Virus record (IMG/VR): IMGVR_UViG_3300026274_000001 | Length of the DNA stretch: 64,000 nt | Strand: one strand, 5' to 3' | Source of the DNA: a virus | Taxonomy: Duplodnaviria > Caudoviricetes | Shown: in pieces, positions 5,988 to 63,602 of the stretch | Layout: every line of letters starts with the position of its first letter | Position numbering within the stretch: the first letter of the stretch is position 1 | Translations under genes and position numbers: made by a program | The notes under the pieces: generated by a model | Seen by the model: only the letters and a program-made list of their open reading frames with translations | Told to the model about the DNA's origin: nothing | The model's database searches: none

Positions 5988-7100
5988 ATGATGACAAACA
6001 TTATTACCCCAGCATCGCAACGAACCGACACAATCAACTTCATCCTGCGTGGGCAACCACAGCACATCGCGCATGAAAAGACCTTTCACGAAGCTGCTAA
6101 GCAATGCGGCACGCTGAACCTCATTTACGGTTGCGCAAACCAACCGCGCGATGATGCAGATCCCTTTTACCAAGAAGAACGTATTGAAGTCGGTAAGCGT
6201 ATTACTGCCAACTTCAAGCAAAAATACAACTGCGACGTGAATTTCCTGTCGGTCGAGAACAGCATCTACAACAATACCCAATGGGGTAACTGGGTTGCAG
6301 AAGCTGTTGCACCGTATGCACACGGTAAGGTAAAGCTGATCGGCCACAACAAGGACGATACTAGCTTCTATCTCAACATGTTCCCGCAATGGGGCGAACC
6401 TATCCTGCTGCCGCAATTCGACGTTCTGGATGCGAGCACAATTCGCAACCTGTACTTCAGCAAGAAAAACAACCTCGACTTCTTCCGTCATGTTTGCCCT
6501 GATGCGACTATCAGCTTCTTGGAAGAGTTCATGCACACTGAGGCTTACGACTACATTGTCGAAGAAGCCAACTACATCAAGAAGTACCGAGAACAAACCC
6601 GTGCTGGTCAAAAGTATGCACCTACGTTCCAAACGGGCGACGCAATTGTTATCAAGTCTAATCACGTTCTGATGATTCAACGCCGTTCCCAACCAGGCAA
6701 GGATCTGTGGGCATTCCCTGGTGGCTTCCTGCGTTCAGAAGATGAAATGGTCAATGGTGAATTGAAGAAGGCTGATCTTGACGTTGTCGATACTGCTCTT
6801 CGTGAACTTACGGAAGAAACTCGTATCAAGCTTCCGCCAGCACTGTTGCGTGGTAGCATTCGTGCTGAAAAGCGCTTTATGCACCCGAAGCGTTCCCGTC
6901 GTGGTCGCGTGACTACCACTGCGCAATTGATCGTTTTAGATGATTCGGAATATAAGGGTTTCCCGAAGGTCAAGGCGCGCGATGATGCAAAGCAAGCTGA
7001 ATGGGTTCACATGAACGACGTAAAGCGTCGTGAGTCCTTCGAGGACCACTTCGATATGCTGCTCTGGGCAAGGGCAATGACTTCTGACGTTCGACTTTAA
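5988..7100 (+). CDS. nadM: bifunctional NMN adenylyltransferase / ADP-ribose pyrophosphatase (NadM-Nudix)
   Basis: N-terminal RGQPQHIAH (HIGH-like), LIGHNKDDTSFYLNMFPQW, DASTIR; C-terminal WAFPGGF..TALRELTEET, DDAKQAEW, FEDHFDM. Confidence 0.92.
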   Translation: MMTNIITPASQRTDTINFILRGQPQHIAHEKTFHEAAKQCGTLNLIYGCANQPRDDADPFYQEERIEVGKRITANFKQKYNCDVNFLSVENSIYNNTQWGNWVAEAVAPYAHGKVKLIGHNKDDTSFYLNMFPQWGEPILLPQFDVLDASTIRNLYFSKKNNLDFFRHVCPDATISFLEEFMHTEAYDYIVEEANYIKKYREQTRAGQKYAPTFQTGDAIVIKSNHVLMIQRRSQPGKDLWAFPGGFLRSEDEMVNGELKKADLDVVDTALRELTEETRIKLPPALLRGSIRAEKRFMHPKRSRRGRVTTTAQLIVLDDSEYKGFPKVKARDDAKQAEWVHMNDVKRRESFEDHFDMLLWARAMTSDVRL

Positions 7101-8342: not shown

Positions 8343-9857
8343 ATGATCACAACAAAACTTCTCAACGACAACTTCTGCTTGGCTGCAGATGCCTATAAGT
8401 TCATGCACTATGCTCAGCTCCCTAAGGGTCTGAAGTTTGTGCAGAGCAGCGTGGTTCCACGCAAACCCAACGCGCATACTGATATGCTGGTAACTGCCGG
8501 TATTCAATACCTTGCAAAGTACCTTGCAAGCGTGCGTATCGACGAACATGATGTCGATGAATTGGTGTTAGAAGCAGGACAACAAGGCTACGAAGTTAAC
8601 GAAGCTAGCTGGCGTGATATGATTGCTCGTTTCGGTGGTCGTTTGCCCCTTCGTATTGAAGCATTGCCTGACGGTACGGTCGTTCGCCCGAACACCGCGG
8701 TCCTGACTATTGTCAATACCGACCCAGCATTTTACTGGTTGCCCTCGTATGTTGAAACAGTCGTCCAACGTATTATCTGGAAGTTTATGACTGTTGCTTC
8801 GATCAGCCGCTCGCTTTACAGCTTGCTGATGCAATATGCAATCAAGACTGGTGCAAATGTGGATATGGTTGTATATCAACTCCACAACTTTGGCGATCGC
8901 GGTGCTGACGCCGACGAAGCTGCACAATGGGCGGGAATCGCCCACGCAATGGTGTTTTCTGGCTCAGACAATTCCCGCGCCAATCCAAATATCAAGCGTC
9001 TTTACAACACTAAGAAGGCCTACACCTCATCTGTCGATGCAACTGAACATAGCACGATGTGCGCTAATTCTGATGCCAAGACGAAGAATGACTACGGCGC
9101 TGCTGTAATGCTTGTTGAGCGTCTGGAAGAAGCGGTTCGTCGTGCAGGTCGTGGTATTGGTGTTCCCGTGGTTAGCGGCGTAGTTGATACCTACAACCCA
9201 TATCGTTTTATCCGTGACTACTTGGGTTCTCCCGAACTGAAGGCGCGTATCGAAGCGTGTGGTCGTGCAGGCGGTAAGCTTGTTCTGCGTCCTGACAGCG
9301 GTGTTCCAGAAATCGAAGTGCCTAAGATCCTCGAGATTGCAGGTGAAGTATTTGGTTTCTCGGTCAACTCGCTGGGTTACAAGGAACTGGTTCCATATAT
9401 CGGCGTGCTGCAAGGCGACGGTATTAATCAAGAATCAGTACCACGTATTTTGGTAGCAACTTGCGATGTAGCTCGCTGGTCGTTTGGTAGCTTCCTGTTT
9501 GGTATGGGTGGTGGTTTGGTGCACGAAGCTGGACGTGATGAATTCTCATTCTCACAAAAGGCAACGGCTATGACGTTCAATTCGGACCCAAGCGTTAATG
9601 GTGACTGGATTGATCTGTTGAAGGAACCTATTACCGACACCAAGAAGAAGTCACTCACTGGATACATTATCAATGTGAAGGACGCTGATGGCACTATTCG
9701 CAGTATCAATCGCAAGAACTGGTACGGTGAAGCTATCGTGTACAACACTGTTGTTTTTGAAAACGGTGAAGCATTTGTTGATGACGTCAACTTTGACGAT
9801 GTTAAGGCTCGTGCTGTTGAAGGCATTAGCAAGACGGAACTGAAGCTGGCTGCATAA
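8343..9857 (+). CDS. nadV: nicotinamide phosphoribosyltransferase (NAMPT/NadV)
   Basis: DAYKFMH, LHNFGDRG, ATEHS, VVDTYN, LRPDSG, LQGDGI, FGMGGGL motifs. Confidence 0.92.
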   Translation: MITTKLLNDNFCLAADAYKFMHYAQLPKGLKFVQSSVVPRKPNAHTDMLVTAGIQYLAKYLASVRIDEHDVDELVLEAGQQGYEVNEASWRDMIARFGGRLPLRIEALPDGTVVRPNTAVLTIVNTDPAFYWLPSYVETVVQRIIWKFMTVASISRSLYSLLMQYAIKTGANVDMVVYQLHNFGDRGADADEAAQWAGIAHAMVFSGSDNSRANPNIKRLYNTKKAYTSSVDATEHSTMCANSDAKTKNDYGAAVMLVERLEEAVRRAGRGIGVPVVSGVVDTYNPYRFIRDYLGSPELKARIEACGRAGGKLVLRPDSGVPEIEVPKILEIAGEVFGFSVNSLGYKELVPYIGVLQGDGINQESVPRILVATCDVARWSFGSFLFGMGGGLVHEAGRDEFSFSQKATAMTFNSDPSVNGDWIDLLKEPITDTKKKSLTGYIINVKDADGTIRSINRKNWYGEAIVYNTVVFENGEAFVDDVNFDDVKARAVEGISKTELKLAA

Positions 9858-18200: not shown

Positions 18201-18863
18201 TTGAGGACTCGGCACATGAGCTATATTGATACCGTGGATCATTCATACGTAGGGCGCCTATTTGGCTGGCCAGTATATCATCCTCTGGGTGTTTACACTG
18301 ACGATGAGTTTGATGCTGATCCGTCCAATCTGGTTATTGGTGGTGGTAGCGGTGAACATCCGGGTATGGTGATCAAATCGCTTGACGCTTGTGTCTTACA
18401 GTATATTGAATTTTGCTATGAATATGCCAAGCTAGAAGAGCCTGACTGGCTCGGGAACCTGTACAATGAAGTGGCCGATTCCTATTTTAATCTGTTTGAT
18501 CATAAGTGGCCAATGCAATCAGTGTCAACTTTAGCTATCAAGGTAAAAGCCGCATTTGAAGAAGCGGTGGCCGACAAGATTAAGAATCCACCTCATATTG
18601 AAAATATGCTTGCGATCATGATTGGTGAATTTCTGTATTATTCTGCCCGTCGCTTGCTATCTGAAAAAGTGAATATAGCATTGATCGAACAGTTCAATGA
18701 CGTTTGGGCATTTTCGTTTTTTGAGGTTATCACTGTACCTGCAAAGGGTTATCCATCAAGTGGTCGTCGTCTAGGTATGGAGAATGGTGAGAGTAAGGTT
18801 ATTTGGGGATTGCGCTTCGAAGACGAGCAAAAATATCTTGATGAACATTCATCGAACTGCTAG
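18201..18863 (+). CDS. hypothetical protein
   Basis: 220-aa ORF; TTGATA-17-TATATT upstream. Confidence 0.75.
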   Translation: MRTRHMSYIDTVDHSYVGRLFGWPVYHPLGVYTDDEFDADPSNLVIGGGSGEHPGMVIKSLDACVLQYIEFCYEYAKLEEPDWLGNLYNEVADSYFNLFDHKWPMQSVSTLAIKVKAAFEEAVADKIKNPPHIENMLAIMIGEFLYYSARRLLSEKVNIALIEQFNDVWAFSFFEVITVPAKGYPSSGRRLGMENGESKVIWGLRFEDEQKYLDEHSSNC

Positions 18864-18866
18864 AGT
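18838..18866 (+). promoter_or_regulatory. sigma70-like promoter for AspRS leader
   Basis: TTGATG-17-TAGAGT; predicted start site ~18873. Confidence 0.55.
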
Positions 18867-18893
18867 GGTGGTATTAAATACAGGATGAACACT

Positions 18894-18965
18894 ATGTTTC
18901 TTTTGAACGACGATAATCGCGATAATATGTTGCCTTTGGGTGACAGGCGATTGCTCGTGCGTTAA
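18894..18965 (+). CDS. Asp/Asn-rich attenuator leader peptide MFLLNDDNRDNMLPLGDRRLLVR (not in ORF track)
   Basis: SD CAGGA 8 nt upstream; codons AAC GAC GAT AAT CGC GAT AAT. Confidence 0.75.
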   Translation: MFLLNDDNRDNMLPLGDRRLLVR

Positions 18966-19014
18966 AACGACAACACTGACATCCAAAGGCGCTCCGTAAA
19001 ACGAGCGCTTTTTT
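18906..19014 (+). promoter_or_regulatory. transcription attenuator (pause 1:2, antiterminator 2:3, terminator 3:4)
   Basis: 18932-18946 pairs 18976-18990 (14/15); 18986-18994 pairs 19003-19011 + T6; 18906-18920 pairs 18947-18963. Confidence 0.8.
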
Positions 19015-19048
19015 GTTGACTATCTGAATCACACTTGAGGAAAATAAA

Positions 19049-20329
19049 ATGAGAGAACTACCAACAACCGTACACGAAGCCCCACACTATATTGGGCAAA
19101 CGGTAACCATGTATATGATTCTGGAAACCCTACGCGATCAGAAACACATGCAATTCATCATTGGACGGGAACGCACTGGCACTTTGCAGCTTGTGATTCA
19201 AAAGTCCAAAGTCGCAAACCATGCCGATATCTCGGAACTCCAACCCGGCTCTACATTTGCTGTGACTGGTACACTAGTCGAAGCTACCCAAAGCAAGACT
19301 CAGGGTATCGAGATGCAGGTTGATAGTGTTGAGATTTTCTCCAAAGCATGGCCGCGCCCTATCACGGAGGAGTCAGGTATTGAAGCACGCTTTGCTCATC
19401 GAGTCGTTGACTTGAAACTTCCAAAGTGGCAGCTGATGATGAAAATCAGAAGTGCCTTTGAAATGGGATGTCGCGAGTACGCACTGGAAAACGGCTGTAC
19501 GGAGTTGCATACTCCGAAGCTGATGGCCAGTGCCAGCGAAAGCGGTTCACAAGTATTCAAAGTTCAGTACTTCGACAAGTTTGCTTATTTGGCCCAGTCA
19601 CCACAGTTTTATAAGCAGATGGGCGTAGCATCAGGCCTTGATGGCGTGTTTGAAATTGGTCCAGTGTTCCGTGCTGAAGAAAGCCATAGCTCCCGCCACA
19701 TGACTGAATTTACTGGCCTGGACGTTGAATTTGCTTGGGCATTTACCACTCAGGATGTGATGACCTTTGAACTTCAAATGCTGCGTCGTGCATTTGAAAA
19801 GTTGCGTCCATTTGCTGCGCAAGCCAAAGAACTGTTTGGCGTTGAACTGCCTGAACACCCAGAATGTCGATTCATGACGCTTGCTGAAGCAAAGGAAATT
19901 GTCAAAGAACGTGGTATTATTCTTCCTGCCTCTGTGGACTTGTCTGACGAAGCAGAACGGGTGCTATATGAAATTACCGGCATTGACTTGATCTTTGTTA
20001 CCGACTATCCAATAGGTAAGCGTCCGTTCTATCATATGTGGGACAAAGAAAAGGGTATCACCCATAGCTTTGACTTGATCTTCAAGGGTATTGAAATCAC
20101 CACTGGTGCGTTGCGGGAACATCGACTCGATATCTTAACTGCGCAAGCAATTGAAAAGGGTGTTGACCCCAAGTCGATCGACCATTACCTTGACAACTTC
20201 CGCTATGGCTGTGCTCCTCATGGTGGGTTCGGTCTGGGTGTTGAACGTGTGATTGCAAAGCTCCTAGGGCTCTCTAGTGTGAAGGAAGCTGCATTTGTTC
20301 CTCGTGACCCAGATCGCCTCGTTCCATAA
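19049..20329 (+). CDS. aspS: aspartyl-tRNA synthetase (archaeal/eukaryote-like short type; possibly non-discriminating)
   Basis: OB-fold RDQKHMQF..RERTG; YLAQSPQFYKQ; FEIGPVFRAEESHSSRHMTEF; GIEITTG; PHGGFGLGVER; FVPRDP. Confidence 0.92.
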   Translation: MRELPTTVHEAPHYIGQTVTMYMILETLRDQKHMQFIIGRERTGTLQLVIQKSKVANHADISELQPGSTFAVTGTLVEATQSKTQGIEMQVDSVEIFSKAWPRPITEESGIEARFAHRVVDLKLPKWQLMMKIRSAFEMGCREYALENGCTELHTPKLMASASESGSQVFKVQYFDKFAYLAQSPQFYKQMGVASGLDGVFEIGPVFRAEESHSSRHMTEFTGLDVEFAWAFTTQDVMTFELQMLRRAFEKLRPFAAQAKELFGVELPEHPECRFMTLAEAKEIVKERGIILPASVDLSDEAERVLYEITGIDLIFVTDYPIGKRPFYHMWDKEKGITHSFDLIFKGIEITTGALREHRLDILTAQAIEKGVDPKSIDHYLDNFRYGCAPHGGFGLGVERVIAKLLGLSSVKEAAFVPRDPDRLVP

Positions 20330-20389
20330 ACTGCTTGATACGATGCTCATATGAACTTATCATGTGAGCATCATTTTCATGGAGGTATT

Positions 20390-24364: not shown

Positions 24365-24523
24365 ATGACTGATATGTTTGACTTTCTGCAAGAAGCATAC
24401 GACCAAGGCTCAGACGCTTACTACGCAGGGCTCCCACGCGCCAGTAACCCGCGGATATCAGACGAAATGCGTGAATCGTGGTTTGCTGGCTATGATAGGG
24501 CCAAAGAACTTGATGATGAATAA
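24365..24523 (+). CDS. Rmf/CrpP-like small protein (not in ORF track)
   Basis: LQEAYDQGSDAYYAG..NP..RESWFAGYDRA follows the RMF pattern; GGGAG upstream. Confidence 0.55.
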   Translation: MTDMFDFLQEAYDQGSDAYYAGLPRASNPRISDEMRESWFAGYDRAKELDDE

Positions 24524-30183: not shown

Positions 30184-30753
30184 ATGGAGAGCATAATGGA
30201 TAACAAATACGGTAGCATGTTGATAAACGGGAAACGAGTTGATGAGCTGACTTTGGAAATTCCGTTTATGAATGTAGCCCAATGTTATTCATTCTCCAAT
30301 GCCATACTCGATATGAGTGCTGCTGCTGAGGACGTACAAGAAGGTGGATACAACGAAACTATCGAAGGGTTGTCTGAGCCTTTCGAGGCGGTGATTGCTC
30401 GTCAGGAAGTATTGGCGGTTGCTACTGCTGCCGAAGTAGAACGTGGTATCGACTCTGGACGCCTTATTAAGGTTGATCATACCGTTTATGAACGTAGCGT
30501 TCACGCGTTGCTGGCTATGCGTTCTATGTTCGGAGACTTGGTTACTGACGTGTTTGTCGATCAACAGTATTTGGAGCACCAGGCTCTCGAGAGCCGTGCA
30601 TTTGGTGAAGAACGAATTATTAAAGCAGAAATCAACAACGACGAGCAACTTGAAATGGATATCAGCGGTCTTAATATGATCGTGCAATTCGCCGATGGCC
30701 GTCGTATCGAAATGACCAATTCTGAATGGGGTCACTTCAAGCGTATCGAATAA
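30184..30753 (+). CDS. hypothetical protein
   Basis: follows family promoter; start may be 30196. Confidence 0.7.
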   Translation: MESIMDNKYGSMLINGKRVDELTLEIPFMNVAQCYSFSNAILDMSAAAEDVQEGGYNETIEGLSEPFEAVIARQEVLAVATAAEVERGIDSGRLIKVDHTVYERSVHALLAMRSMFGDLVTDVFVDQQYLEHQALESRAFGEERIIKAEINNDEQLEMDISGLNMIVQFADGRRIEMTNSEWGHFKRIE

Positions 30754-30761
30754 GGAAAAAT

Positions 30762-31559
30762 ATGTTTTGGGTCTTACAGAAAAACCTCTTTAACGAGCAA
30801 GCCTTTATGAGCTTGCTCGAGCAGCTTGAACGGCAGGATGTGCCACATGAGATTGTGAGCCTAGTGCCGTTTATCCAACAAATGACGCCTGACATCAATC
30901 CTGAAGGACTGGTGTATGTATGCGGTTCTACGGGTATTGGTAAGGTTGCCCGTAAGAAGGGCTGGACCCCTGGCTACTTTGATGACAACTTGGATTACGA
31001 GTTGGTCATGAAAAATTACGGTGAAGACTGCTTGAACTGGCGTGGTCACGTCACGACAATGCGCGATGCCAGCAAGGAGTTACTGGTAAACCCAGAAGTA
31101 AAGTTCTTTACGCGCCCTTGCTCTGATACGAAATCGTATTCCGGCCAAGTAATGGAATGGAAAGAATTCGACGAATGGCGAAACAAAGTAGTCGCACTGT
31201 CGGAAGATGGCGAAGATAACTCGCTCACCACCTTGCAGCCTGAAGATAAAATCGTTATCGCCCCGTTGACTACCATTTATTCCGAGACTCGTTTCTATGT
31301 TGTTGATGGCGAAGTGGTTACTGGCTCCCTGTATAAATTTGGTAATCAAGTACAGTACAGCGATGATGTGATGCCTTTCATTAAGGACTTTGCCCAGGAA
31401 AAGGTAAATCAGTGGCAGCCAAATCGAGCATTTGTGCTTGACATTGCAGACACTGATGAAGGTCCAAAAGTGATCGAAATCAACGCCATCAATTCGTCAG
31501 GCTTTTATGCTTGTGATATGGGCAAGTACATCGACGCTATTAATTCAATGGAATTTTGA
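30762..31559 (+). CDS. ATP-grasp protein (DUF4343 / R2K-like) 1
   Basis: FFTRPCSDTKSYSG, ETRFYVVDGEVVTGSLY, AFVLDIA, VIEINAINSSGFY. Confidence 0.85.
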   Translation: MFWVLQKNLFNEQAFMSLLEQLERQDVPHEIVSLVPFIQQMTPDINPEGLVYVCGSTGIGKVARKKGWTPGYFDDNLDYELVMKNYGEDCLNWRGHVTTMRDASKELLVNPEVKFFTRPCSDTKSYSGQVMEWKEFDEWRNKVVALSEDGEDNSLTTLQPEDKIVIAPLTTIYSETRFYVVDGEVVTGSLYKFGNQVQYSDDVMPFIKDFAQEKVNQWQPNRAFVLDIADTDEGPKVIEINAINSSGFYACDMGKYIDAINSMEF

Positions 31560-35504: not shown

Positions 35505-36314
35505 ATGAAAACAAATCCAACATGGCTAGTTCAAATAACAAGTAGGCACGACACTACTATCAAGCAGGAAGTTGAATCACTAACTGAACTTGGCCTACCT
35601 TGGAAAGATTTTGGGGTAATTCCATTTACGACCGACATCACGGGACTGGATGCGCCTTATACCAACTTTGTTGTGCGTGGTGGCACCAAAGTATTGTCCA
35701 TGATTACAGATGATCCTACCTTGTGGTTGAAGGATGGTGTCTTTTATGACAAGGATAAGTTTGACCAGAATCAATACCAGTCCCTGGGTTTGCCACTCTT
35801 AAATGCTGATGCAGAGTTCTTCAACCTCCCTGATTTTCCGTACCTGATGTTTGAGCAGGAAATGTTCGTGAAGCCTTCCAGTGACTTGAAAGCATTCACA
35901 GCCGGAATATTGGAAGTAGGTCAGAGCGTGCAGGAGTTTATTGGCGCACAGATGCATCAATCGAATGCATTCTCAGAAATCATTCTAGCCGCTGAAGCAA
36001 AGACGGTGATTGATGAGTACCGCTTCTTTGTACTAAACGATCAAGTCATTACTGGGTCACAATACCGGGTTAACCAGCAACTGCGCTATACCGCACTTAC
36101 AAATTCTGCGGAACATGTTTCAGTGCTAAAAGTTGCACAAGATTACGCAAAATTGTATCAGCCTGCCGAGGTATTCACGCTTGATATTGGTAAGACGGTA
36201 GACGGGGTCTACTCTATTATAGAATATAACTGTTTCAATGCATCAGGTTTGTACGCTTGCGATGTGAATCTGTTGTTTACTACAATCAGTAATTTTGTAA
36301 GGTCTCGTGTTTAG
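35505..36314 (+). CDS. ATP-grasp protein (DUF4343 / R2K-like) 2
   Basis: MFVKPSSDLKAFTAG, EYRFFVLNDQVITGSQY, VFTLDIG, IIEYNCFNASGLY. Confidence 0.85.
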   Translation: MKTNPTWLVQITSRHDTTIKQEVESLTELGLPWKDFGVIPFTTDITGLDAPYTNFVVRGGTKVLSMITDDPTLWLKDGVFYDKDKFDQNQYQSLGLPLLNADAEFFNLPDFPYLMFEQEMFVKPSSDLKAFTAGILEVGQSVQEFIGAQMHQSNAFSEIILAAEAKTVIDEYRFFVLNDQVITGSQYRVNQQLRYTALTNSAEHVSVLKVAQDYAKLYQPAEVFTLDIGKTVDGVYSIIEYNCFNASGLYACDVNLLFTTISNFVRSRV

Positions 36315-46193: not shown

Positions 46194-46487
46194 ATGAGTC
46201 ATAACTCTGGCTACCGACCAATTGCCCATTCACCGGCTAAGGAAGGTGAATCAACCTGGTCTGATCATGGAATCGATTTGACCCCGCCTATTACAACCTC
46301 CGGCCGTCTTCATGTAATTGCACAGGAAATTGCAATCTTGGAAGAACGACTGCAAGTGGCTGTTGAACTTTTGAAACGTGCACGCAGCGAATTTCTGCAG
46401 ACTGAACCGACATTCTCGGATGAGCTTGACGACGAAATGGTTGCGTTTATCAACACGAACACCACAATTAAGCAAGTTGCTCGGTAA
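46194..46487 (+). CDS. hypothetical protein
   Basis: SD AAGGA. Confidence 0.65.
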   Translation: MSHNSGYRPIAHSPAKEGESTWSDHGIDLTPPITTSGRLHVIAQEIAILEERLQVAVELLKRARSEFLQTEPTFSDELDDEMVAFINTNTTIKQVAR

Positions 46488-47026
46488 TGGATAAGCTATC
46501 AAAAATTACGGCATTTTTACTGCTGTATCATAATTATCACCGCACGGCGGACGACTACAAACTAGTTGGGCCGGTGGTAGCTAAGCTATTGCTTAACGAC
46601 GTGGTGACTCTCCTTCGTGATGAAGGGACGGAAATTCATGAGCTTGAAGAATACCATTATGGTATGACTCAGTTGATTGCTGACTGTGCTCTATTGCAAG
46701 CACACGGTTATATTGAGTCTCGACATGTCAAGAAGATCCTCAAAGACTGCTGGAATTATCCCTATGTGGGGTTTGATCTAGTGCAGTATGCCCATGCATC
46801 TAAAATCTTTGATGAAGCTAGTGGTGACTCTCTTATGATTGAAGTGCGTGCGGTACTGGCTGATGTCAACTATGCGAAAACTGTCGAACAGGTGAAGGGT
46901 GGTAGGGACAAAGCCATCGGCGCTCTCGTTGGTGCAGTAATGAAGAAGGTGAAGGGCGATCCCAAGCAGATTAAAGAAATGCTGGCAAGCGAAATGGGCG
47001 TAACCCTATCAGCATTAAGCAGTTGA
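46487..47026 (+). CDS. GatB/YqeY C-terminal (tRNA-binding) domain protein
   Basis: VRAVLA..VEQVKGGRDKAIGALVGAVMKKVKGDPKQIKEML resembles GatB tail. Confidence 0.75.
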   Translation: MDKLSKITAFLLLYHNYHRTADDYKLVGPVVAKLLLNDVVTLLRDEGTEIHELEEYHYGMTQLIADCALLQAHGYIESRHVKKILKDCWNYPYVGFDLVQYAHASKIFDEASGDSLMIEVRAVLADVNYAKTVEQVKGGRDKAIGALVGAVMKKVKGDPKQIKEMLASEMGVTLSALSS

Positions 47027-62594: not shown

Positions 62595-63602
62595 ATGATG
62601 AAAAAGTATGTTGCAGTCATAGCAGCACTGATGTTAGCTGGTTGTGGGGGAGGGGGCGGTGGTGATAATTCAAATACGTCAGCCGCGTCCACGCCGGCTA
62701 GTTCACCCACACCAGCATCAAGCCCAGCGGTGGTTACCGCTTCAGCACAAGGCATTTACAACACTTCAGTAGGTGCAACGGGCGCACTGACTAATATAGT
62801 ATTGCCTGATGGTTCGTTTTACATATTCAATGTCAATAATGCAGTCTTTACTGACATTGTTATTGGTGATAGTACGGTAACATCAACAACCATCAATTCC
62901 ACAAACGCGGTTGATTTTTCATTCGCAAATGCAAGCAGCACCAATGTTTTGCTTGCGGCAACTTATGTGTCGAAACAGACCCTTAATGGTTCGTTAACGA
63001 TAACGAGTCAAGTAGTACCGTTTGCTAGTGATTATAACCAAGCATACGACAACACGATCGCATTGACTCAAATAGCTGGTGCGTATACGGGGGCGAATGC
63101 AACGCTTAGCGGCCCCGTACAAAATCAGATCACGATAAAACCTGATCTTTCTTTCATAGGGGTGTCAAGTACCTGTCAGTATGCTGGACAATTAACTGCA
63201 AGTCATGGTTCACTTTATACGGTAACCATTACATTCCCTGCAGGTTGTCCGTTTGCCGGTACAGCGATAACTGGTATTGCAACATTTGATCCAACTCTCA
63301 ACCAGCTAACCATCGTTGCGTCGCCCCAAAATCGAGCCGATGTGTTTCTTGCTATAGATACCATGCCTGCAACAGCACCAAGCACCGCTCCAGGTACTTG
63401 TAGTGTGTTTGCACCGTCGTCAAGCTGTTCACCTCTAGGTACTGTTCCCGCAGCCACTACACCTGCTAGCTCAACTTCCGCTACGCCATCAAGCCCAGCA
63501 AGTGGAACGACACAAACCGGTAGTGGGACTGAGACGTGCACTAATCCGACAGGCTGCACGTCAAGTGGTAGTACGACAACGGGGGCCACGGCAGGTACGT
63601 GA
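62595..63602 (+). CDS. Ser/Thr/Gly-rich lipoprotein
   Basis: lipobox LMLAGC + GGGGGG linker; beta-rich core; low-complexity tail. Confidence 0.8.
   Translation: MMKKYVAVIAALMLAGCGGGGGGDNSNTSAASTPASSPTPASSPAVVTASAQGIYNTSVGATGALTNIVLPDGSFYIFNVNNAVFTDIVIGDSTVTSTTINSTNAVDFSFANASSTNVLLAATYVSKQTLNGSLTITSQVVPFASDYNQAYDNTIALTQIAGAYTGANATLSGPVQNQITIKPDLSFIGVSSTCQYAGQLTASHGSLYTVTITFPAGCPFAGTAITGIATFDPTLNQLTIVASPQNRADVFLAIDTMPATAPSTAPGTCSVFAPSSSCSPLGTVPAATTPASSTSATPSSPASGTTQTGSGTETCTNPTGCTSSGSTTTGATAGT

Follow-up and report, generated by a model that had tools for sequence, protein, structure and literature searches.

The window analysed here is a stretch of 64,000 nucleotides from a virus of the class Caudoviricetes (Duplodnaviria), taken from IMG/VR record IMGVR_UViG_3300026274_000001. 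Its plus strand carries aspS2 at positions 19049-20329, an open reading frame (ORF) of 426 amino acids, which starts with ATG at 19049 and, according to the ORF listing, ends with its stop at 20329. The gene codes for an archaeal-type class IIb aspartyl-tRNA synthetase (AspRS), called AspRS2 in the following text, and it is preceded by a short leader ORF with a run of asparagine and aspartate codons. The present analysis concerns the substrate of this enzyme: a discriminating (D) AspRS charges tRNA-Asp only, whereas a nondiscriminating (ND) one charges both tRNA-Asp and tRNA-Asn with aspartate.

An earlier reading of the letters alone (the original prediction) had described the ORF as a class IIb AspRS lacking the GAD insertion of bacterial enzymes, and this description has stood in all its details. 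The ORF is complete and lies on the plus strand, the AspRS-type string LAQSPQ occupies residues 181-186, motif 2 (FRAE) residues 207-210, and motif 3 (GLGVER) ends at Arg400. The two strings quoted from the anticodon-binding domain, RDQKHMQF and ATQSKTQG, are found at residues 29-36 and 79-86. Absence of the GAD insertion is apparent from end-to-end alignment to archaeal-type enzymes of 422-438 amino acids; the 590-position model of bacterial AspRS is matched in two separate pieces only, residues 13-254 mapping to model positions 15-267.

The N-terminal OB-fold anticodon-binding domain (19091-19342, plus strand; residues ~15-98) was delimited by Pfam family PF01336, by five strands in the AlphaFold2 (AF2) model and by residue conservation. 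Its PF01336 score, 27.1 bits, is just at the cut-off of 27. The domain holds Glu26, Arg29, Phe36, Gln47, the L1 loop Gln81-Ser82-Lys83-Thr84 and Glu88. The class II catalytic core (19382-20326, plus strand; residues 112-426) was delimited by tRNA-synt_2 (PF00152; 231 bits, residues 112-420) and by residue conservation, and contains Pro156 of motif 1, QSPQ 183-186 with Lys189, Arg208 and Glu210 of motif 2, Asp225, Glu227, Arg356 and Arg400 of motif 3. Among NCBIfam models, the best one is NF003483 (aspartate--tRNA(Asn) ligase), with 415.3 bits against a cut-off of 353. Models of asparaginyl-tRNA synthetase (AsnRS) failed (NF003037, 223 bits against 414; TIGR00457, 218 against 342.6), as did the AsnA model NF005052 (112 bits against 368), and in the same NCBIfam comparison the models of bacterial AspRS and LysRS scored far under their own cut-offs. 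Sequence matches in PDB (1N9W, 1B8A/3NEL and 1WYD) extend end to end, with E-values of 1e-78 to 3e-71. The AF2 model, built from an alignment of 48 sequences, has a predicted local distance difference test score (pLDDT) of 94.1 and a predicted template modelling score of 0.90, with pLDDT above 90 in the OB beta-barrel; its closest folds are the archaeal AspRSs 1B8A, 3NEL and 1WYD (template modelling score, TM, 0.88).

AspRS2 belongs to a distinct clade, as indicated by a gap in cluster identities: in a library clustered at 50% identity, one neighbouring cluster lies at 67% and the next one at 47%, and nothing outside the clade exceeds 47%. The members comprise seven sequences in phage context, 77-97% identical, and about 100 others at 55-69%. 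Those bacterial members that we examined are chromosomal and come from Pandoraea, Burkholderia, Paraburkholderia, a low-GC bacterium, and a low-GC bacterium with IcmW and ankyrin genes. In bacteria AspRS2 is a rare accessory gene, present in 1 of 401 genomes of an order-wide sample of Burkholderiales (that one genome being the query's own) and in 5 of 213 Paraburkholderia species. Its neighbours vary from genome to genome among the bacterial carriers and no conserved biosynthetic cluster surrounds it. In the maximum-likelihood tree the seven phage sequences are monophyletic (SH-aLRT support 100) and form a sister group to 38 of the 40 other sampled clade sequences, without being nested among them. 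Recent capture from Burkholderiaceae was considered and dropped, as the phage clade is nested in no bacterial group, and we name no donor. We regard aspS2 as an old resident of a lineage of ~224-kb soil jumbo phages.

Residues expected of a working enzyme are strictly retained. Pro156, QSPQ-Lys189, Arg208, Glu210, Asp225, Glu227, Arg356 and Arg400 are invariant in 7/7 phage and 111/111 other clade sequences; we take the QSPQ-Lys element, Asp225 and Arg356 to be aspartate-binding, as in the enzymes of Escherichia coli and yeast. Arg29, Phe36, Gln47 and Glu88 are likewise invariant across the clade and are present in at least 96 of 114 sequences outside it; presumably they hold the central anticodon base, as their counterparts do in known class IIb complexes. 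The ratio of nonsynonymous to synonymous substitution rates (dN/dS) between phage copies is 0.04-0.10, with synonymous sites saturated, and the phage gene is under purifying selection. Invariance of both the catalytic and the OB-domain residues argues for an active, aspartate-specific, tRNA-dependent AspRS and not for an AsnRS or an AsnA-like synthetase. The original prediction had reckoned with an inactive protein or with a paralog of AsnRS or asparagine synthetase kind; the invariant catalytic residues and low dN/dS speak against the former, and the pattern of passed and failed family models against the latter.

Upstream of aspS2 lies what looks like a self-contained regulatory cassette on the plus strand. 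A sigma-70-like promoter of the leader-aspS2 unit was read from the sequence at 18838-18866 (TTGATG, 17 nt, TAGAGT); it scores 8/12, under the threshold of a consensus scan, and phage relatives keep TTGACA or TTGACG, 17 nt and TAGAGT or TAGATT at the same place. The leader ORF (18894-18965) has 23 codons plus stop, or 26 codons if it began at the in-frame ATG at 18885; AGGA lies 9 nt upstream of 18894. The ORF is conserved both in phages (five copies) and in bacteria. Leader codons 5-11 (18906-18926) read Asn-Asp-Asp-Asn-Arg-Asp-Asn, so that six out of seven are Asn or Asp. Nowhere else in the six frames of the 64 kb do seven consecutive codons include at least six for Asn/Asp (mean of 20 shuffles, 0.05). 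The run is followed by region 2 (18932-18942), the 5' arm of a proposed antiterminator, which overlaps a small hairpin at 18928-18945 and pairs with region 3 (18980-18990), the 3' arm. Positions 18985-18990 of region 3 are also part of the stem of an intrinsic terminator (18985-19014), the putative attenuator, composed of a 10-bp stem, an 8-nt loop and a U-run at 19009-19014. The Shine-Dalgarno sequence GAGGA of aspS2 was read at 19037-19041, 7 nt upstream of the ATG. Right after the aspS2 stop, a 13-bp hairpin (20342-20372, plus strand), overlapping the promoter and start of the next gene, probably bounds the unit on its 3' side. Both leader and gene are spanned by contigs from soil metatranscriptomes (four studies); transcript ends are not visible in them and carry-over of DNA is not excludable, so they were given no weight as signs of expression or read-through.

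Nearly all clade members that we examined carry the same cassette of leader and terminator upstream of the gene: 5 copies from phages, 9 from Burkholderiaceae, the metagenomic copy L088 (55% identical) and 3 from low-GC bacteria, the latter having the same cassette with different distal sequence. In every case, 49-55 nt separate the leader stop from the end of the U-run. All leaders carry a run of Asn codons. Phage leaders have Asn or Asp at six of seven codons, and the runs of low-GC bacteria also hold Asp; Burkholderiaceae leaders read Asn-Asn-Asn or Asn-Gln-His-Asn-Asn, with Asn always encoded by AAT and at most one Asp, placed two codons ahead of the Asn run. None of 51 outgroup loci has such an Asn/Asp leader. 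In the alignment, 99.5% of cells in the terminator and small hairpin are paired, and one terminator pair occurs as A-U (6 sequences), G-C (5) and U-A (1), which is a compensatory change. The antiterminator pairing, 18932-18942 with 18980-18990, shares six bases with the terminator stem and is kept in 93% of cells over 12 sequences, compared with 28-61% in controls with slid partners; compensatory changes occur in this helix as well. A short ORF with a regulatory codon run directly before an intrinsic terminator and aspS2 is the layout of a leader-peptide attenuator, and from this architecture we infer attenuation at the aspS2 leader. Rfam 15 contains no family for the leader (E-values up to 1), and no description of an Asn/Asp leader attenuator or of a phage ND-AspRS was found in the literature searched.

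The subgroup L107/L108 has no leader ORF upstream of AspRS2. These two sequences (L107 5700-6000 and L108 1-151; 66% identity, GC 58%) show instead a ~100-nt perfect inverted repeat upstream of a TTG start, which suggests that regulation is different there. Two records needed reassignment. A scan of IMG/VR with the single AspRS protein gave no match, and the scan with the alignment gave L112 only (G615, IMGVR_UViG_3300031088_000737), a 181-kb record labelled "provirus" in IMG/VR. Leader and neighbours of its AspRS2 are those seen in L109. The record holds two clusters of tRNA genes, 27 genes in all (77617-79500 and 156104-158244), one of them a dense array of ~14 tRNA-like genes on a single strand, mostly 81-84 nt long. 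We rejected it as a second phage lineage and treat it as cellular, because its context is shared with L109, whose protein P0018 is also found on a 1.9-Mb contig, and because of the 27 tRNA genes; it probably comes from the chromosome of a low-GC bacterium. The other record, L012, is an 837-kb contig (CAVRAM010000006.1) of an 'Acidobacteriota' metagenome-assembled genome (MAG). Its AspRS2 is 84% identical to the Pandoraea enzyme and its leader is identical at every leader codon to that of the Paraburkholderia MAG L009; the contig is probably misbinned Paraburkholderia DNA.

Gene content of the bacterial carriers is that expected of the indirect pathway, in which aspartate is first attached to tRNA-Asn. 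AsnRS was found in 0/5 carrier genomes and in 0/61 genomes of the whole genus sample. GatB is present in 5/5 carriers and GatA in 4/5, the fifth being cut by a contig end; AsnA was found in 0/5 and AsnB in 1/5. With AsnRS, AsnA and mostly AsnB absent and GatCAB present, the sole asparagine route found in most carriers runs via Asp-tRNA(Asn). The carriers also keep a bacterial-type housekeeping AspRS. As AspRS2 is missing from most of the genus, the housekeeping enzyme of the Burkholderiaceae carriers has to be ND. In these bacteria AspRS2 thus seems to be an inducible booster for the indirect pathway to Asn-tRNA.

The original prediction held that the anticodon-domain residues do not give D or ND status by eye, and so it proved. 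Feng et al. reportedly found in 2003 that the discriminating AspRS of Thermococcus kodakarensis could charge tRNA-Asn once either Trp26 or Lys85 was changed to its ND state, His or Pro respectively, and the AspRS2 of Thermus thermophilus has His and Pro at the aligned positions. In the clade studied here, position 26 is always Asp or Glu and the L1 loop is Gln81-Ser82-Lys83-Thr84-x-Gly86 without exception. Archaeal-type enzymes of other bacteria put the His/Pro rule in perspective. Patescibacterial ones have a short Pro-containing loop and mostly His or Gln at position 26, and AsnRS is missing in 23/24 of their genomes. Where the loop is a long Lys-Leu-Asn one, in Clostridial and Bacteroidota enzymes, the genomes have AsnRS in 11/11 cases; in Clostridia/Lachnospiraceae an archaeal-type AspRS with this loop adjoins, or shares its genome with, a true AsnRS (G637:C2:19907-22594, the genome behind L037; likewise G632), which fits a discriminating form, unlike the clade studied. 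The nearest outgroup is represented by actinobacterial enzymes (43-47% identity), in which the L1 loop is long and contains Lys and residue 26 is Asp, Asn, Ser or Ala. In five small actinobacterial MAGs whose enzymes have Asp, Ser or Ala there, AsnRS (0/5) and bacterial-type AspRS (0/5) were lacking and GatB was present (5/5), the archaeal-type enzyme being the sole AspRS found. Judged by this gene content, and allowing for gaps in MAGs, these enzymes must be ND. As they are ND without His/Pro, this signature is not necessary and its absence from AspRS2 weighs little; the His26/Pro85 rule is unusable alone for D/ND calls in bacterial archaeal-type enzymes.

Taken with its leader and its relatives, the phage AspRS2 is probably a nondiscriminating enzyme, charging both tRNA-Asp and tRNA-Asn with aspartate. 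The codons of an attenuator name the tRNAs relevant to the gene downstream; a discriminating AspRS is not concerned with tRNA-Asn, and the leader therefore points to ND. As the Asn codons are constant in the leaders and the Asp codons variable, the enzyme would make Asp-tRNA(Asn), with or without Asp-tRNA(Asp), and it is on these grounds that we infer charging of tRNA-Asn. The original prediction had suggested that an Asp and Asn leader favours ND; the leader is real and conserved, and comparative data strengthen the suggestion without proving ND. The enzyme would activate aspartate and bind tRNAs with the central anticodon base U35, with no discrimination at position 36. Its gene would form a unit of its own, made of a sigma-70-type promoter, the 23-codon leader, the intrinsic terminator and aspS2. 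With charged tRNA-Asn or tRNA-Asp in short supply, the ribosome would stall in the Asn/Asp run, region 2 would pair with region 3, the terminator would not form and aspS2 would be transcribed. The product would then feed the first step of the indirect route, the attachment of aspartate to tRNA-Asn.

Several observations weigh against this reading. The model of nondiscriminating enzymes, TIGR00458 (aspS_nondisc), gives 344 bits, under its cut-off of 368.4. Under the His/Pro rule, Glu26 and Thr84 represent neither the D (Trp/Lys) nor the ND (His/Pro) state of the switch positions, and the L1 loop, long, strictly conserved as QSKT and with its Lys retained, resembles specific more than relaxed recognition. 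Absence of AsnRS alone does not require AspRS2 to be ND, the housekeeping AspRS of the carriers necessarily being ND already, and the AsnRS/GatCAB repertoire is that of five bacterial carriers and the genus sample. Equilibrium folding with a ribosome masked in the middle of the run lowers the probability of the terminator in the window (0.94 to 0.56) and in L084 (to 0.25), and hardly changes it in several other copies; such masked-footprint folding shows the predicted exchange in part and gives no clean on/off switch, and it was weighed neither for nor against attenuation. A rival reading is a discriminating AspRS that serves tRNA-Asp only, with which the phage would raise the supply of Asp-tRNA or replace the host enzyme, the leader Asn codons being a by-product, for example of a read-out of Asx supply. 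Such an enzyme would be in line with the lack of His26 and of Pro in L1, with a loop as long as that of the T. kodakarensis D enzyme and its conserved Lys, with the score below the TIGR00458 cut-off, with the Asp codons of the phage leader, and with the co-occurrence of AsnRS and long-Lys-loop enzymes in all 11 Clostridial and Bacteroidota genomes. We nevertheless regard it as unlikely: runs made of Asn only, such as Asn-Asn-Asn, would be pointless in bacterial leaders of an enzyme that does not touch tRNA-Asn, the closest outgroup with a similar loop must be ND by genome content, and all sampled carriers rely on the indirect pathway.

The Asn-only runs of Burkholderiaceae leaders would suit an AspRS dedicated to tRNA-Asn, making Asp-tRNA(Asn) only and leaving tRNA-Asp to the host enzyme, as a counterpart of the tRNA-Gln-specific GluRS2 of Helicobacter pylori. 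The invariant QSKT loop together with an acidic residue 26 suggests specific read-out of position 36, and a housekeeping AspRS is already at hand in the carriers. As phage and low-GC leaders mix Asp with Asn codons, suggesting that the charging of both tRNAs is relevant, and as we know of no AspRS specific for tRNA-Asn, this specificity seems distinctly improbable for the phage enzyme. A noncanonical role is least credible of all and would be quite surprising, be it that of a tRNA-independent asparagine synthetase (AsnA/AS-AR kind), of an aspartyl-tRNA donor for a nonribosomal reaction, or of a copy resistant to an AspRS inhibitor. A leader with Asn codons is indeed expected of an asparagine biosynthetic gene, four of five carriers are without both AsnA and AsnB, and the clade is a rare accessory gene; AspRS2, however, has an OB anticodon domain, which AsnA/AS-AR proteins lack (PMC9437257), with invariant tRNA-contact residues, its AsnA score of 112 bits is far from 368, and the differing neighbours form no conserved biosynthetic cluster. 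A nondiscriminating AspRS2 remains the reading that we prefer.

The source of the window is very likely a jumbo phage. The window is without cellular housekeeping genes, 101 of its 118 non-overlapping ORFs of at least 70 amino acids lie on the plus strand and most of them have no family. Recognisable genes are typical of large phages: NAMPT, NMNAT-Nudix, two R2K ATP-grasp proteins and a Ro/TROVE-like protein. An identical AspRS protein is found on a 223,660-bp contig, and an 85%-identical relative (L091) on a contig of 224,352 bp, with the shared order NMNAT-Nudix, NAMPT, DUF3268, aspS, R2K. No structural gene was seen among the ORFs of the window, which covers 64 kb of a ~224-kb genome, and there is no tRNA gene within it. 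A megablast search with 6 kb found nothing among GenBank phages. The NAD salvage pair, NMNAT-Nudix (5988-7100) and NAMPT (8343-9857), both on the plus strand, is syntenic with L091, and the nearest relatives of the NAMPT come from 350-kb jumbo phages (42-46% identity). The two R2K-type ATP-grasp proteins (30726-31559 and 35505-36314, plus strand) are paralogous and match phrog_7313 with ~200 bits each. Other plus-strand genes include a 52-aa ORF matching ribosome modulation factor (24365-24523; PF04957, 30.6 bits against a cut-off of 27.9) and an ORF that weakly matches (50 bits) the PHROG of T7 gp0.7-like protein kinase/host-transcription inhibitor (971-1540). A predicted lipoprotein (62595-63602, plus strand) has a signal peptide ending in Leu-Ala-Gly-Cys, followed by six Gly and long linkers rich in Ser, Thr, Ala and Pro; it matches no Pfam or PHROG family.

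What the phage would gain is a supply of Asn-tRNA. Asparagine makes up 4.6% of its predicted proteins, compared with 0.9-2.0% in sampled genes of high-GC carriers, and aspartate is similar. High-GC carriers of the cassette make Asn-tRNA by the indirect route only; if the host were such a bacterium, the demand on the two-step supply would rise about two- to threefold during infection. A Burkholderiaceae host is compatible with the shared distal part of the leader, with the soil habitat and with the Cys-polyGly start of the lipoprotein, none of which proves it. At 46487-47026 (plus strand) the window also codes for a free-standing 179-aa GatB/YqeY tail-domain protein (PF02637, 47.4 bits against a cut-off of 27) without the amidotransferase core. 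It could serve as a tRNA-binding helper, and may or may not be linked to AspRS2. A bolder proposal, which we hold to be rather unlikely, would make AspRS2 a new functional class: its invariant QSKT loop would read U36 and serve mainly or only tRNA-Asn, expression would be induced by stalling at Asn codons, and jumbo phages would have added Asp codons to the sensor. They would thereby bring a virus-encoded entry to the indirect pathway, in which the GatB-tail/YqeY protein perhaps hands Asp-tRNA(Asn) to the host GatCAB in a partly phage-built transamidosome.

Synthetases in huge phages are already known, as is a second, archaeal-type ND AspRS in Thermus and Deinococcus. Besides tRNAs and further genes of translation, jumbo and huge phages carry up to 15 synthetases (Al-Shayeb et al. 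2020, PMC7162821); in that article we found no statement on the D/ND status of a phage AspRS or on a leader. Within the GenBank phage set, the AspRS-like genes nearest to AspRS2 are those of two of its genomes (LR756502 and LR745206), with only 36-38% identity, and PHROGs contain only a bacterial-type AspRS family. A second AspRS has been called rare in bacteria (PMC4206432). A close likeness is found in the AspRS2 of Thermus thermophilus (PDB 1N9W; transamidosome 3KFU) and Deinococcus radiodurans, an archaeal-type ND second AspRS in a bacterium. It shares with the present clade the lack of GAD, the length of ~422-435 amino acids, the position of a second AspRS beside a bacterial-type one and the occurrence in organisms with GatCAB, and 1N9W is the best PDB match (E-value 1e-78). 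The clade differs in having Glu26 and a longer QSKT loop in place of His26 and a short Pro-containing L1, in identity below 50%, and in its carriers, which are mesophilic Proteobacteria and phages. To our knowledge, no leader-peptide attenuator is known for the Thermus and Deinococcus genes. The discriminating AspRS of T. kodakarensis (1B8A, 3NEL) is the best structural match (TM 0.88), with the same order of domains and the same L1 length; its Trp26 and Lys85 correspond to Glu26 and Thr84 here, and T. kodakarensis possesses AsnRS.

As far as found, an AspRS2 clade with its own anticodon loop in mesophilic Proteobacteria and a phage lineage is new, and so are the Asn/Asp leader-peptide attenuator and a phage feeding the indirect Asn-tRNA route. 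Phage synthetases are usually listed without asking about their substrate; in this case the leader codons name the controlling tRNAs, and these are the two substrates of an ND-AspRS. If our interpretation is true, a phage gene feeds the GatCAB-dependent route to Asn-tRNA, mesophilic Proteobacteria harbour an uncharacterised AspRS2 clade with an anticodon loop unlike the textbook D and ND forms, and the classical leader-peptide attenuators are joined by an Asn/Asp member, none having been found in Rfam or the literature searched. The nearest classical example is pheST of E. coli, in which the Phe-rich leader ORF pheM, alternative hairpins and an intrinsic terminator precede the synthetase genes. 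The aspS2 cassette has the same elements, a short ORF of cognate codons, alternative hairpins and an intrinsic terminator before an aminoacyl-tRNA synthetase gene; unlike in pheST, its codons are those of Asn, with Asp in the phage, and so correspond to the two tRNA products of an ND enzyme. Regulation of the indirect pathway itself has a precedent in the transamidation operon of Clostridium acetobutylicum, which is controlled by a T-box reading tRNA-Asn (PMC4052509, citing Saad et al. 2013). The likeness lies in uncharged tRNA-Asn switching on the indirect pathway and in the sensing of two tRNAs. The two-codon T-box of this Gram-positive bacterium binds tRNA-Asn and tRNA-Glu directly, whereas the sensing proposed for aspS2 would be mediated by the ribosome, through its Asn and Asp codons.

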